Origin: a virus
Taxonomy: Duplodnaviria; Heunggongvirae; Uroviricota; Caudoviricetes
Length of the DNA stretch: 64,000 nt
Strand: one strand, 5' to 3'
Virus record (IMG/VR): IMGVR_UViG_3300034283_001314
Positions 10,550 through 57,028 of this stretch are shown one piece after another. The position numbers and the translations under genes were made by a program. Every line of letters begins with the position of its first letter. Position 1 is the stretch's first letter. Below the pieces are notes generated by a model. That model ran no database searches. It was not told the DNA's origin and worked only from the letters and a program-made list of their open reading frames with translations.

Positions 10550-12580
10550 ATGGCACTGAATCCTAAAGATAAGTCGTGGATATCTAATAAGAAAGATATA
10601 AAATATTTAAACAGAGATTTTAGTTCTTTGAGACAATCTCTAATTGAGTTTACTAAAACATATTTTGCTAATACAAATAGTGATTTTAGTGATGCATCTC
10701 CTGGTATGATGTTTATAGAACAGGCCGCATATGTGGGTGATGTTTTATCATATTATACCGATGCTCAATTAAAAGAATCATTTATAAATGTAGCATCTGA
10801 TGTTGGAAATGTGTTTAGGCACGCTCAGAATTTTGGATATGTTCCTAAAATAAGTAGACCAGCAACTACTACATTGACAGTATATCAAGTAGTTCCATCG
10901 GTAAACCCATCTAATCCTGAACCTGATAGTAGATATTATCTTAAGATTAAAGAAGGTATGGAAGTGGTTTCATCTACTAATAATAATATAACATTTAGAA
11001 CTACGGATATAGTTGATTTTGCAGATCCTAATGGTAGAACAATTTCGGTTTTAACAAGAACTGGTACTCAAATAAATCAATTTTTGATTACAAAGGAAGT
11101 TCCTGCAATTAGTGCTACGGTGGAAACCTTAAATTTAACAAATTTTAATAATCCATTTAGACCTAATCCAACGTTTACTATTACTGATAATAGATTTATT
11201 AAAATTTTATCAATCAAAGATGTAAACGATCAAACATACTATTACGAAGTTCCATATTTGGCACAAGAAATGATATATGTTAAAGAACAAAACGCATCAA
11301 TTAATAATTCTGTATTATCAGCTAATTCAAATACTACACCTTATATTTTAAAGCAAATCAAAACAAACAAAAGATTTACTACTAGAGTTGTTGGTGAAGA
11401 ATTAGTACAAGTTAGATTTGGGGCAGCAAGTGAGTTTACGGCAGATGAAATGATTATACCTAATACTAAAAATGTAGGGTTGGGATTAAATAATTCAATT
11501 AGTAGATTAGAACAATCCTTTGATCCTTCTAATTTCTTAAAAACATCTACATATGGAATTGCTCCACAAAATGCAGAGTTGGAAATAAAATATTTATCAG
11601 GTGGTGGTATTGAATCAAATGTTAAAACAAATGATTTAAGAAGTATTACTAAAGTAGAATTTTTTGAAGACCTATTAAGTTTTGATAATATTAATTCGGT
11701 ATCATACAACGCAGCAAAAGCATCAATTGCAGTAGATAATTTGATTCCTGCAACGGGTGGTAGAGGATTAGAAACATTAGAAGAAATTAGAGAAAACGCG
11801 ATTGCAAACTACGCATCTCAAAATAGAGCAGTTACTAAACAAGATTATGAAGTAAGAGCATTATCATTAGAACCATCATTCGGTAGTATTGCAAAAGTAT
11901 ATGTTGAACAAGATTCAGCAGCTGATATAAATCCTACTCAAAATGTATTAAGAGATCCTAAGAGTAGAGATGAGTTTTTAAATATGACAAAATCCTTGAT
12001 AGGAAAATCAGATGCTGAATTAGAAACGGCTGTTAATAATTTTTTAGAAAGTAAGCAAACTATAAATTCAGAAAATAATCCATTTGCAATTAATATGTAT
12101 GTTTTATCATATAATTCGGATGGTAAATTGGTGGTAGCAAATAACGCAACTAAACAAAATTTAAAAAGTTATTTAAATGATTTTAGATTGATTACCGATG
12201 CAGTAAATATCATCGATGGTTTTGTTATAAATGTAGGTGTAAATTTTGAAATAACAACATATACCAACTATAACAAACAAGAAGTAGTATTAAATTGTAT
12301 ACAATCTATTACTGATTATTTTAATATAAACAATAGAAAGATAGGACAACCAATTAACTTAAGTGAATTAGAATTAGAAATAGCAAATGTAGATGGGGTA
12401 TCATCCGTTCCTAAAATAGAATTATATAATATTTGTGGTGATGGTACGGATAATAGTTATTCATTGTATTCATATGATATAAAAGAAGCAACTAAAAATA
12501 AAATAGTATATCCATCATTAGACCCTTCTATTTTTGAACTTAAGTTTCCAAATAAAGATATTAAAGGGAGAGCATTATAA
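10550..12580 (+). CDS. Baseplate wedge subunit (T4 gp6 / baseplate J-like)
   Basis: YLNRDFSSLRQSL...DFSDASPGMMFIEQAAYVGDVLSYY; ATGGRGLETLEEIR...QNRAVTKQDY. Confidence 0.85.
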   Translation: MALNPKDKSWISNKKDIKYLNRDFSSLRQSLIEFTKTYFANTNSDFSDASPGMMFIEQAAYVGDVLSYYTDAQLKESFINVASDVGNVFRHAQNFGYVPKISRPATTTLTVYQVVPSVNPSNPEPDSRYYLKIKEGMEVVSSTNNNITFRTTDIVDFADPNGRTISVLTRTGTQINQFLITKEVPAISATVETLNLTNFNNPFRPNPTFTITDNRFIKILSIKDVNDQTYYYEVPYLAQEMIYVKEQNASINNSVLSANSNTTPYILKQIKTNKRFTTRVVGEELVQVRFGAASEFTADEMIIPNTKNVGLGLNNSISRLEQSFDPSNFLKTSTYGIAPQNAELEIKYLSGGGIESNVKTNDLRSITKVEFFEDLLSFDNINSVSYNAAKASIAVDNLIPATGGRGLETLEEIRENAIANYASQNRAVTKQDYEVRALSLEPSFGSIAKVYVEQDSAADINPTQNVLRDPKSRDEFLNMTKSLIGKSDAELETAVNNFLESKQTINSENNPFAINMYVLSYNSDGKLVVANNATKQNLKSYLNDFRLITDAVNIIDGFVINVGVNFEITTYTNYNKQEVVLNCIQSITDYFNINNRKIGQPINLSELELEIANVDGVSSVPKIELYNICGDGTDNSYSLYSYDIKEATKNKIVYPSLDPSIFELKFPNKDIKGRAL

Positions 12581-13671
12581 TGATACTATTTCATACAGCA
12601 TCTAGTGATGCAAGTATTTACTTACAACAACCTTACCAAAATACAGGTATAGATGAGGTTTTAGAAATATCTAAACAATACTATGGTGATACTCCGGATA
12701 TCAGTAGAGTATTAATTAAGTTTAATGCAGCATCAGTTGTATCTAATATTACTAATAATAACTTCACAGCATCATTGCAGTTGAAAATAACGGAGGCTAA
12801 TGAAATAGCAAGTACATTTACAATTGAATTATTTGAGGTGAGTGGTAGTTGGGAAAATGGTACTGGCACTCGTTTTGATAATTTAACTACAAATGGTGCA
12901 AGTTGGTATTATAGAAATGAAAATAACTCAAATTGGTATAAAGAAATGGATGGTATTACCGCATCGTATGGTGTAGGTGTTACTGGTAGTTGGGATGGTT
13001 TAGGTGGTTCATGGTTTACTCAATCAATTGCAACTCAAACTTTTTCTTATACATTAGATGATATTAATTTAGATGTAACAAATGCAGTTAGAAATTGGAG
13101 AAGTGGTTCTACACATAATGGATTTATTATTAAATTAACATCCGCAGCAGAAGATATAACGAATAACTCTGATTATGGTAGTATTAAGATGTTTTCAAAA
13201 GAAACAAATACAATATACCAACCTAAATTAGTATTGGCTTATGCAGATAGTGGAAGTGTTACTGGTAGTTTAGCAGAGGTTAGTGATGTTATAAATTTAG
13301 CTAATTATGAATTTTTATATAGAGTGTATCCATCAAATCTTAAAAAAGAATATACCAAAGGTCAGAAAGTAACTATTAAGGTTGATGCAAGAGAATTATA
13401 TCCGGTTAAACAATTTAATTCAGTATTTGCACATCAAGTAAAATACTACTTACCAACTACTACATATTATTCAATCATAGATACAATAACAAAAGAACCA
13501 ATTATAGATTATTCCGAAAATACAAAAGTAGTAAGGGATAATTATAACAATTTAATAAAACTTAATTTTTCAAATTGGGCAGTTGGTAGAACATATACTT
13601 TATTATTAAAAGTAGTAGGTACGGATAATGAAGAAATTTTTGAAATTGGTACTTTTGATATTTATGAATAA
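12580..13671 (+). CDS. Virion protein with DNRLRE-like beta-sandwich domain
   Basis: DASIY...GIDEVLEISK, SRVLIKF, LDVTNAVRNW, NGFIIK, FSKETNTIYQPKL. Confidence 0.55.
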   Translation: MILFHTASSDASIYLQQPYQNTGIDEVLEISKQYYGDTPDISRVLIKFNAASVVSNITNNNFTASLQLKITEANEIASTFTIELFEVSGSWENGTGTRFDNLTTNGASWYYRNENNSNWYKEMDGITASYGVGVTGSWDGLGGSWFTQSIATQTFSYTLDDINLDVTNAVRNWRSGSTHNGFIIKLTSAAEDITNNSDYGSIKMFSKETNTIYQPKLVLAYADSGSVTGSLAEVSDVINLANYEFLYRVYPSNLKKEYTKGQKVTIKVDARELYPVKQFNSVFAHQVKYYLPTTTYYSIIDTITKEPIIDYSENTKVVRDNYNNLIKLNFSNWAVGRTYTLLLKVVGTDNEEIFEIGTFDIYE

Positions 13672-13673
13672 TA

Positions 13674-55703: not shown

Positions 55704-55708
55704 TACAC

Positions 55709-57028
55709 ATGAAAGTATTATACGATAAATGGTTTTTAAATAAACCATTAGCAAATTGTTTAAGTGCAGATGTATTAAACTATATTTTTTTAAATTATAA
55801 TGCAAATATTGAAAATCACATTTTATCGTTTGAATTAGAGAAAAATTTTGGAAATAAACATAATTGTTGGTTAAGCAATATTGGATTAAAAACAAAAAAA
55901 ACAGAATCTATATCCGATATAAATTCTAATAATTGGTTATATCCAATAGAACCATGGGGACATTTGATGTATTCGTTAAATGTTGAATCGATAGATGAGT
56001 ATGCTAATTTCTTTGAAAAAATACCAAACGAAATAATAAATAAAATAAATAATGATGAAGGTAAACTTTTAATTAATTACTCACATGAAGGATGGGTTAG
56101 TGACTGGTTATTAAAAGGAATGTATTTAGGTGCAAAAAATGCTGGTATTAAATTTGATAATATTATAATAATTTTAAATGATTATAATTTAGAATCAAAA
56201 TTGAGTTTATTTAAACAAACATACAACATAGAGCAATATCCAAATGTAATAAATTATTCATTTTATCTAACAGCCTCATCAAAACATTTTTATTACAAAC
56301 ACATAAATAAAAATTTAATTAATAAACATATTAATTTAAATAAACCTTACAAATTTTTATCATTAAATAGAAGGTTAGATTTACATAGAGTTAAATTAAT
56401 GTGTGAAGTTTTAAATGATATTTCATTTGAATCAATAATATCATTTGATAAAACATTAATTACAAATGAAGTTCCTAAACTATTTGAAAAAGAACCTTTA
56501 TTAAAAGAAAAGTTTGATTTATTACCAGATAAAGTTATTGCAGATAGAGAGGATATAGAAAATACAAATGGATATGAACATGAAAATGAAAATTTATTTT
56601 TAGATTCATATATTAGTATTGTTACCGAAACCTCTTTTTATATTGATAATGATTTTATTAGTGAAAAAGTATGGAAGCCATTATATCAATTTCATCCATT
56701 TATTGTAGTAGGTAGACCGCATTTATTAAAATATCTAAAAGAAATTGGATTTAAAACATTTGATTGGATAATAGATGAAACGTATGATACGATAGATGAT
56801 AATGATTTGAGAATGAAAATGATTGTAAATGAAATTAAAAGATTAAACAATTTATCATTAGAGGATATTAGTAATCTTATAAAAAACAATTTTTTATTAT
56901 TAGAACATAATCATAATTTATTAAACAATTTAGGAAGTAAAACGGAATCAATAGAGCAGTTTGTTATTGAAAATATAAAAAACAATAGTTATAGTTATAT
57001 AGATATTTATAAAAAGTTAAATTTATAG
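55709..57028 (+). CDS. Putative GT-B glycosyltransferase (GT10-like C-terminus), paralog 3
   Basis: FLSLNRRLDLHR; ISIVTETSF...ISEKVWKPLYQFHPFIVVG...GFKTFD..IDETYD. Confidence 0.5.
   Translation: MKVLYDKWFLNKPLANCLSADVLNYIFLNYNANIENHILSFELEKNFGNKHNCWLSNIGLKTKKTESISDINSNNWLYPIEPWGHLMYSLNVESIDEYANFFEKIPNEIINKINNDEGKLLINYSHEGWVSDWLLKGMYLGAKNAGIKFDNIIIILNDYNLESKLSLFKQTYNIEQYPNVINYSFYLTASSKHFYYKHINKNLINKHINLNKPYKFLSLNRRLDLHRVKLMCEVLNDISFESIISFDKTLITNEVPKLFEKEPLLKEKFDLLPDKVIADREDIENTNGYEHENENLFLDSYISIVTETSFYIDNDFISEKVWKPLYQFHPFIVVGRPHLLKYLKEIGFKTFDWIIDETYDTIDDNDLRMKMIVNEIKRLNNLSLEDISNLIKNNFLLLEHNHNLLNNLGSKTESIEQFVIENIKNNSYSYIDIYKKLNL
57003..57011 (+). promoter_or_regulatory. Putative late promoter ATATTTATA
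   Basis: At the 3' end of the upstream CDS, 18 nt before ATG 57030. Confidence 0.45.

Follow-up and report, generated by a model that had tools for sequence, protein, structure and literature searches.

A possible virion O-glycosylation pathway encoded beside the tail fibre gene of a T4-like jumbo phage

The 64,000 nt window analysed here (IMG/VR virus record IMGVR_UViG_3300034283_001314; coordinates are window positions unless another contig is named) derives from an uncultured T4-like jumbo phage of low guanine plus cytosine (GC) content, probably with a host among the Bacteroidota, and carries a 22 kb island of sugar-related genes (34761-57028) located between a tail fibre gene and the terminase gene, i.e. 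within or beside the structural block. A preliminary description had joined this island, a tripeptide [S/T]-[G/A]-S enriched in tail and baseplate proteins and the prolyl hydroxylase-like genes around a 15-proline linker into a single pathway for O-glycosylation of the virion. Glycosylation of the virion by a phage-autonomous, cytoplasmic pathway, with the outer proteins of the particle as the likeliest acceptor, is also the reading preferred here, with a confidence slightly short of even. It is favoured over the others since it would fit a motif that is lineage-specific and confined to the proteins of the structural modules; it would likewise fit the position of a conserved core of glycosyltransferase family 7 (GT7) genes beside motif-rich fibres in two distant lineages, the 4 nt overlap of the GT4-like and fibre genes in relatives and the lack of membrane or lipid-carrier components. 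The gene content, the motif and the hydroxylase/poly-proline cassette on which the preliminary description relied are retained, while a role of the GT7 enzymes in initiation on peptides, their guidance by lectin domains and the proline run as a fixed acceptor call for revision.

Five open reading frames (ORFs) of the window, starting at 12580, 16175, 21731, 23032 and 29920, together contain 43 [ST][GA]S tripeptides as against 9.3 expected from their own composition, and the remaining 55 ORFs contain 8 in total. The five encode a baseplate or fibre protein (12580-13671; 8 motifs, 0.7 expected), three of whose sites are conserved in position in the orthologue of Flavobacterium phage immuto; a 1619-aa fibre-like protein with a weak LamG match (16175-21034; 8 motifs, 2.6 expected); two structural proteins with orthologues in immuto, in Microcystis phage Mel-JY01 and in the IMG/VR relative G002 (21731-22954, 8 motifs, 1.3 expected; 23032-24159, 3 motifs, 0.5 expected); and the tail fibre with a C-terminal Peptidase_S74 chaperone domain identified with Pfam (29920-32982; 16 motifs, 4.2 expected). 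The gp25-like and gp6/Baseplate_J-like genes of the inner baseplate (10123-12580), also identified with Pfam, contain none. All 60 sizeable ORFs, including every window gene mentioned below, lie on the plus strand. In the ten structural ORFs tested, 44 motifs were counted; shuffling of whole proteins, or within local windows of 10-40 aa, gave 12-16, and none of 2000 shuffles reached 44. SGS, found 18 times with 3.6 expected, ranks second in enrichment among the tripeptides, PPP being first. The order of the residues matters, with SGS enriched 6-7 fold, TGS, SAS and TAS 3-4 fold, and SGT, xGS and SGx at about 1, and the enrichment of dipeptides is no more than 1.1-1.8. V or I is preferred before the motif and L after it, and the codons at these sites are varied.

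Two near-complete relatives from IMG/VR were compared, namely G002 (213.6 kb), whose synteny spans almost the entire window, and G001 (323.9 kb). The ordered, tripeptide-specific pattern recurs in G002 (SGS 65, 9.0 expected), where the 13 most enriched of the 261 ORFs all fall within structural modules, 11 being identified virion proteins and 2 proteins of no assigned function. The enriched virion proteins of G002 include four orthologues of the baseplate/fibre proteins of the window, two further S74 fibres, a gp15-like protein and the major capsid protein, and its island-adjacent fibre holds 40 motifs with 7.3 expected. The G002 tail sheath has 11 motifs (2.2 expected), all 11 outside the conserved C-terminal core, and the capsid protein has 5 (1.3 expected) spread over residues 121-252; capsid and tube genes lie outside the window, and the capsid count is that of G002. 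The orthologues of the fibre in the 29920 position are mostly enriched in other relatives as well. The virion proteins of T4 (22 structural proteins, 5 motifs, 16.2 expected; long fibres, 9 motifs, 8.4 expected) and of cyanophage P-SSM4 (25 motifs, 22 expected) are not enriched, whereas those of the two cultured relatives are (immuto 97 motifs, 25 expected; Mel-JY01 54 motifs, 10.4 expected), and several sites are found at matching positions in proteins about 30% identical. The enrichment proposed in the preliminary description thus withstands counting and shuffling, and extends to the relatives. Relatives with the enrichment and without the island had been named there as grounds for rejecting the pathway. 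Immuto and Mel-JY01 are two such phages; both carry other genes of the GT2 and GT1 types, which are absent from the unenriched T4 and P-SSM4, and for that reason they do not decide the matter.

In 29 IMG/VR contigs and further metagenome contigs, a core of genes was found in the order fibre, GT4-like, methyltransferase, GT2-like, two GT7 and radical S-adenosylmethionine (SAM) enzyme, beyond which the gene content varies. On a contig from Tara Oceans, the stretch of this core between the methyltransferase and radical SAM genes, both included, comes after a large protein without annotation. In several relatives, the end of the fibre gene and the start of the GT4-like gene overlap by 4 nt, and the core-adjacent fibre is significantly enriched for the motif, about 2.5-5.5 fold, in most loci holding one. 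G001 belongs to a different, distant lineage, its TerL being only 31% and its sheath 29% identical, but its GT7-LamG protein 60%. Its core lies directly downstream of fibres built largely of collagen-like (G-[S/T]-S)n arrays, the longest of 333 residues. Such fibres, with about 100 SGS per protein, are encoded at L036:1-4155 and at 276680-280894, 239445-242594 and 282814-286185 of G001, while in the window the tripeptides are scattered and form no arrays of triplets. The position of the GT7 core beside [S/T]-G-S-rich fibres in this second lineage is a partly independent association.

The two GT7 genes (39138-40559 and 40556-42004) encode beta-1,4-galactosyltransferase-like enzymes with an inserted LamG domain. 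Their Pfam scores for Glyco_transf_7N and Glyco_transf_7C are 80.8 and 62.6 bits for ORF 39138 and 72.9 and 68.8 bits for ORF 40556 (gathering cut-offs 27 and 23 bits, respectively), and both also match Laminin_G_3. An alignment of 21 sequences shows FNRGKL, HDVDM, YFGGV and WGWGxEDDD, followed by a LamG domain of about 250 residues and a conserved RR..F..H..NG...DGLSNL tail; HDVDM, YFGGV and WGWG(Y/F)EDDD are invariant or nearly so. In an AlphaFold2 (AF2) model with a predicted local distance difference test (pLDDT) score of 87.7, the top Foldseek matches were B4GALT7 and B4GALT1 (E-values 3e-14 to 1e-11), at 34-37% identity and with only the N-terminal 158 or so positions aligned, and the middle of the model matched pentraxin/LamG folds. 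As these matches are sugar-to-sugar beta-1,4-galactosyltransferases, the enzymes probably elongate a glycan rather than initiate it on a peptide; the lectin-guided role proposed for the LamG insert is unproven. The architecture is common, with more than 3000 matching protein clusters at E-values up to 0.001 in public genomes and metagenomes, the 120 best of which have the same three-domain make-up, and none was found among 50,697 GenBank phage records.

The GT4-like gene (34761-35774) gave no Pfam match, and the sequence profile of its family found no solved relative; its assignment rests on fold. A model of ORF 34761 with 15 orthologues is a two-Rossmann GT-B structure (AF2 pLDDT 85.6) with 460 Foldseek matches in the PDB at E-values up to 0.001, GT4-type enzymes leading, and a block EPFGYxIFxAxD, a C-terminal motif of the E-x7-E type, is invariant across the family. 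T4 beta-glucosyltransferase is one of the weaker fold matches, and phage transferases are described as building diverse glycans on DNA in a passage of PMC12619734 citing Pyle et al. 2024. Both could be taken to mean that the transferases decorate hydroxymethylated phage bases against restriction. We consider this highly improbable: the window and its surroundings contain no hydroxymethylase or DNA-binding module, the neighbours of the island are structural and not replication genes, and the GT7 enzymes match transferases with sugar acceptors. The single Thymidylat_synt gene of each relative (about 320 bits) resembles an ordinary ThyA but does not decide the matter.

The preliminary description had also listed enzymes for the supply of a donor sugar, and these are supported at the level of families. 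They are an RmlC-like nucleoside diphosphate (NDP)-4-keto-6-deoxyhexose 3,5-epimerase (46573-47109), an extended short-chain dehydrogenase/reductase (SDR) of the NDP-sugar epimerase/dehydratase family (44087-45055), two GDP-fucose-synthase-like SDRs flanking a 173-aa coiled-coil-like ORF (51130-52068 and 52555-53532), the E1-alpha-like, thiamine pyrophosphate (TPP)-binding half (47728-48363) and the E1-beta-like, pyrimidine-binding half (54380-54925) of a split thiamine enzyme, and two paralogous radical SAM proteins with a twitch (N_Twi) domain (42004-43395, 325 bits to NF033640, and 45057-46583), both matching that profile at more than 300 bits. All these were assigned by profile matches; for the radical SAM proteins the literature and the source names yield only generic labels. 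In the two fucose-synthase-like SDRs the expected YxxxK is not at its place, where SWSK and GWMK are read; the enzymes may be non-canonical, or the register may have been misjudged.

RmlC, SDR and fucose-synthase-like enzymes are typical of O-antigen pathways, LamG domains often bind carbohydrates, and the receptor-modifying genes of seroconverting phages often lie beside tail-spike genes. The sugars of the island could accordingly be destined for the lipopolysaccharide, capsule or another surface glycan of the host during infection, blocking superinfection or keeping the progeny from sticking to debris, and the virion motif would then be an unrelated structural feature. Passages of PMC7029224, PMC7824862 and PMC12801897 make this the usual published reading of the fibre-linked glycosyltransferase and deoxysugar clusters of pelagimyophages and jumbo cyanophages. 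We regard it as unlikely for the present island, although it is the first alternative to be reckoned with. None of the island ORFs has a transmembrane or hydrophobic segment, and profiles for phosphoglycosyl transferases (PF02397, Bac_transf) and Wzx-type flippases (PF01943) found no match in the relatives G001-G003. The core has moved between lineages and kept its place beside fibres, occurring at 60% identity in one with a TerL only 31% identical, again next to [S/T]-G-S-rich fibres, and remodelling of the host envelope leaves the virion-specific, lineage-specific enrichment of the motif unexplained.

The claimed contents of the remainder of the island fared unevenly, the GT4-like fold, the two GT7-LamG enzymes (strongly) and a methyltransferase being supported and the GT2-like, GT10-like, SGNH and sulfotransferase candidates being weak. 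The Methyltransf_24 methyltransferase (37301-38056) and the GT-A/GT2-like protein (38059-38907; weak Pfam match, E-value 0.002) are members of the conserved core by synteny. Three paralogues at 48348-49853, 49850-51130 and 55709-57028, the last at the end of the island, form a virus-only family with a fucosyltransferase-like C-terminal module, recognised by alignment and in the atlas. Its 12 members gave no Pfam match, Glyco_transf_10 included, and no PDB profile match, and the nearest named atlas cluster scores only 0.80. The conserved R..HR and (T/S)EK..KP blocks of the family, which we take to recall fucosyltransferase motifs, suggest that the three may act like fucosyltransferases, short of membership of GT10. 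Four SGNH candidates, namely two adjoining GCS/GDS-motif proteins (35771-37314, ORFs 35771 and 36511) and a paralogous GDS/GCS-motif pair (53532-54419 and 54897-55703), have block I only (GDS in two, GCS in two), without DxxH or a family match, and the sulfotransferase-like candidate (47106-47705) has a PRSGT loop and likewise no family match; both labels, resting on these N-terminal motifs, are weak. A 230-aa protein (43395-44087) without a family match carries the signature WIG...FxGxIxEfiv and looks like a free-standing LamG domain. Searches of Pfam, NCBIfam and PHROGs gave no family for ten unassigned ORFs of the island. In Mel-JY01 (PP395634.1), a Glycos_transf_1 domain is found at about 5293-5655 inside a 1234-aa open frame and could represent the fusion of a transferase with a large protein.

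Immediately upstream of the island, the predicted bracketing of a 15-proline linker by prolyl hydroxylase-like genes was confirmed, the term 'fibre-tip protein' for its carrier being conjectural. Three 2-oxoglutarate (2OG)-Fe(II) oxygenases with the HxD...H triad match 2OG-FeII_Oxy_3 (PF13640), two of them of the prolyl 4-hydroxylase (P4H) type (29248-29889, Pfam E-value 7e-9; 32984-33466, 3e-9) and the third prolyl 3-/4-hydroxylase-like (34178-34753, 4e-13). The best solved structures for the third are prolyl 3-hydroxylase 1 (2e-10) and the prolyl 4-hydroxylase of Bacillus anthracis (4e-5). The protein between the last two (33475-34167), delimited from its sequence and homologues, consists of an N-terminal adaptor, the proline run (P15; 33625-33669, encoded by a mixture of CCT, CCA and CCG) and a C-terminal domain; the last 166 residues of the protein include 12 Cys. 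The linker reads P12, P8, P7, PPPP or PT/PS in homologues, or is absent, and the adaptor module is elsewhere joined to LamG domains, in one case within the structural module of a small phage contig. As the linkers vary and the adaptor recombines, the protein is modular and probably virion-associated, and its proline run is a spacer of variable length, from P4 to P15 or none, and not a fixed acceptor. In each of the four contexts observed (the window, L034, L071 and L072), the gene for the P-linker protein is directly followed by one for a PF13640 oxygenase, and in the window and L072 a second such gene precedes it; neither the P-linker protein nor the oxygenase was found at this place in relatives whose GT4-like gene abuts the fibre gene. 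The coupling of oxygenase and P-linker protein is thus supported, with proline as the presumed substrate.

The same cassette enters a different explanation, in which the enzymes modify not the particle but another peptide or protein, or yield a small molecule that carries sugar, for example if radical SAM enzyme, oxygenase and transferases tailored the Cys-rich domain of the P15 protein or a secreted factor. Peptides are frequent substrates of radical SAM/SPASM enzymes, as many as six genes for such enzymes stand in a row after the GT7 core in relatives (in the G001 lineage, at L036:13665-21301, followed by a carbamoyltransferase), and the P15 protein with its 12 Cys travels with the oxygenase gene. 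This protein is however absent from the conserved core of most relatives, the island shows no precursor-like small ORF or peptidase, and a single decoration would hardly call for NDP-sugar enzymes and six or more transferase-like genes, which suggest an oligosaccharide. A product of this kind appears distinctly improbable, less so than the modification of DNA.

Transcription of the island was examined for its relation to the fibre gene. No intergenic terminator lies between the fibre gene and 57028, and the sole apparent gap is filled by a 59-aa ORF (38956-39135), in the place of which the relatives have a gene of 67-83 aa; co-transcription of the island with the fibre gene is therefore likely, as judged from the gene layout. 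The only convincing intergenic intrinsic terminator in 20-60 kb lies at 22977-23003, between ORFs 21731 and 23032, and is followed by TATTTATA. Eight of the 12 coding-strand copies of (A)TATTTATA (plus strand, 7122-7129, 21063-21070, 23017-23024, 24164-24171, 29896-29903, 57154-57161, 60476-60483 and 63388-63395) each lie 3-29 nt before the start of a different gene, a zone that covers about 1.5% of the sequence, and the copy at 29896-29903, recognised as TATAAATA on the minus strand, fronts the fibre gene. In G002 the element shows a strand bias of 44 to 13, with 31 of the 44 copies no more than 45 nt from an ORF start, and TATTTATA is a candidate for a phage-specific promoter element. Its interpretation as a late promoter was dropped, as in G002 it also precedes genes of non-structural modules and one island gene, and the T4 late promoter TATAAATA was rejected with only 2 coding-strand copies and a both-strand total of 14, below the shuffled mean of 27. 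A TATATTTG element upstream of the primase gene (25025-25060) fits the TAnnTTTG -7 box of Bacteroidota.

Under the preferred reading of virion O-glycosylation, the island, the oxygenase/P15 cassette and a smaller gene set upstream would act together. What the sequence shows here is genes, gene families, motif counts and gene order, whereas each substrate and product is inferred. The soluble RmlC-like enzyme, the three SDRs, the split TPP enzyme and the two twitch radical SAM proteins would convert NDP-hexoses of the host into an unusual 6-deoxy sugar, possibly branched or C-modified. An initiating transferase, for which the GT-B enzyme beside the fibre gene is the best candidate, would then place the first sugar on the Ser of exposed hydrophobic-[S/T]-[G/A]-S-hydrophobic sites of the fibres and the outer baseplate. 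The two GT7 and the three fucosyltransferase-like enzymes would lengthen the chain, and the LamG insert may serve to grip the nascent glycan or the fibre. The chain would be completed with methyl, acyl, sulfate or carbamoyl groups. Separately, the prolyl hydroxylase-like oxygenases would most likely hydroxylate the poly-proline linker of the adjacent fibre-associated protein.

Several points weigh against this scheme. The motif is usually preceded by a hydrophobic strand and could be a structural strand-turn element; immuto and Mel-JY01 keep it yet lack the GT7, GT4-like and GT2-like genes of the island. The fibres adjacent to the core are weakly enriched in L013 and L014, a partial fibre-like protein of the marine contig L038 is unenriched, and so are the sheath and the capsid of G001. 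GT7 enzymes are known to act on sugar acceptors, and no peptide-initiating transferase was identified. Late timing of expression is not established, since TATTTATA in G002 also precedes genes outside the structural modules. Finally, passages of PMC7029224 and PMC7824862, in analyses of a 'host recognition cluster', favour modification of the host O-chain.

If virion O-glycosylation is the true function, many abundant freshwater and marine phages would bear a self-made glycan coat on fibres, baseplate and sheath, with consequences for the recognition of hosts, for the stability and antigenicity of the particle and for its resistance to proteases and grazers, and the usual reading of the fibre-region 'LPS genes' in T4-like aquatic phages would be overturned. 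The acceptor motif is simple and testable, and it is common to the two cultured phages immuto and Mel-JY01. A bolder generalisation, which we consider doubtful, is a widespread and so far undescribed O-glycosylation code of aquatic jumbo phages. Its acceptor would be the Ser of hydrophobic-[S/T]-[G/A]-S-hydrophobic sites, expanded in some lineages to collagen-like (G-[S/T]-S)n fibres that need sugars for stability; its glycan would be built by GT7-LamG enzymes and the virus-only fucosyltransferase-like family; and an extensin-like second route would hydroxylate, and perhaps glycosylate, poly-proline linkers.

The surroundings of the island are those of a T4-like backbone. The TerL of the window is 55% identical to that of immuto and Mel-JY01 and about 35% to that of T4-like cyanophages, and Pfam identified, besides the gp25-like and gp6-like baseplate proteins and the Peptidase_S74 tail fibre, a T7-type endonuclease I, a DnaG primase, a fused SbcD-SbcC, a NadR-like protein and the terminase. 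The gene order in immuto is primase, exonuclease, one unnamed gene, NadR, about 10 more genes and terminase; as its primase-NadR interval contains no sugar genes, 29248-57028 is an insertion relative to the immuto backbone. A smaller glycan-type set recognised with Pfam (1-7105) lies upstream of the baseplate module and includes an SDR cut at its 5' end (1-813), a methyltransferase (801-1385), a weak GT2-like (2128-2763) and a weak 2OG-like protein (2766-3416), a carbamoyltransferase (5390-7105) and IscA-like and peptide deformylase genes, so that with the island downstream the baseplate/fibre module is flanked on both sides by genes of glycan type. The gene after the island (57165-60449) encodes a 1094-aa protein with DUF5661 and a cytidylyltransferase-like (NadR/NMNAT-type) domain and belongs to the backbone. 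It was rejected as a sugar-activating enzyme since its position and annotation match the NadR-like backbone gene of immuto, and it has a G002 orthologue.

The endonuclease I gene (24617-25024; 194 bits) adjoins the primase gene inside a T4-like genome. SbcD (Metallophos) and SbcC (AAA_23/SMC) are fused in an ORF of 1048 aa (26090-29236), a fusion kept in L034 and G002, the two being separate genes in T4 and P-SSM4. At 80953-83322 of G002 (L043:953-3322, minus strand), a 789-aa protein contains Hint/intein and AXH-type domains. GC content is 28-33% in the window, with a minimum of 23% at 36001-38000, where ORF 36511 (GDS motif) and the methyltransferase are encoded; across the related loci it spans only 28-35%, an uninformative range, and was dropped as a gauge of host diversity. 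Searches of the window for tRNA genes and with Rfam gave no matches. Ralstonia phage RsoM2USA was set aside as an uninformative relative, with only the radical SAM and an SDR gene in common and its annotation entirely 'hypothetical'.

Among known systems, seroconverting phages (GtrABC, Oac, phage Wzy) also carry glycan-modifying genes beside tail-spike or fibre genes and depend on integral membrane proteins, which are absent from the island and the searched relatives. Freeman et al. 2023 (Cell Host Microbe; cited in PMC12619734) reportedly demonstrated by experiment that glycosyltransferases encoded by mycobacteriophages glycosylate the virion. The likeness lies in phage transferases beside structural genes and in O-linked glycans proposed on the phage's own particle proteins. 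There, the acceptors are Ser/Thr-rich C-terminal extensions of capsid and tail-tube proteins, the hosts are actinobacterial and a large NDP-sugar pathway is lacking, whereas here the transferase families are different, the candidate acceptor is a tripeptide dispersed over fibres, baseplate and sheath, and the modification is a prediction. The exosporium protein BclA of B. anthracis forms fibres of G-X-T-type triplets with O-linked oligosaccharides that end in a methylated deoxysugar, served by a rhamnose/anthrose pathway and a P4H-type enzyme. The (G-[S/T]-S)n fibres of the relatives beside the GT7 core and the presence of a P4H-type enzyme in the same organism recall this system, which differs in belonging to a bacterial spore surface and not a virion, and the window is without triplet arrays.

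Giant viruses, whose autonomous glycosylation is treated in PMC4691112, offer a further parallel. The capsid of chlorovirus PBCV-1 and the fibrils of Mimivirus likewise involve soluble transferases, NDP enzymes for rare sugars, methyltransferases and non-canonical acceptor sites; PBCV-1 encodes a prolyl 4-hydroxylase, and Mimivirus both hydroxylates and glycosylates collagen-like proteins. They differ in that their hosts are eukaryotic, that PBCV-1 carries N-linked glycans and that their enzymes belong to families without orthology to those of the window. A last parallel is given by the pelagimyophage and jumbo cyanophage clusters of PMC7029224, PMC7824862 and PMC12801897, passages of which describe T4-like aquatic myophages with a large variable fibre region containing glycosyltransferases, deoxysugar enzymes, radical SAM cassettes, 2OG oxygenases and carbamoyltransferases. 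In these passages the clusters are interpreted, without experiments, as modifying the host O-chain or DNA, and neither the GT7-LamG architecture nor a virion acceptor motif is mentioned. The GT7 enzymes themselves resemble animal B4GALT1 and B4GALT7 (CAZy GT7) in their 7N and 7C matches and in FNRGKL, HDVDM, YFGGV and WGWGxEDDD. They differ in the LamG domain of about 250 aa that splits the catalytic domain, in having no membrane stem and in occurring as two adjacent paralogues, and a GT7 catalytic domain split by LamG is an unreported enzyme architecture.

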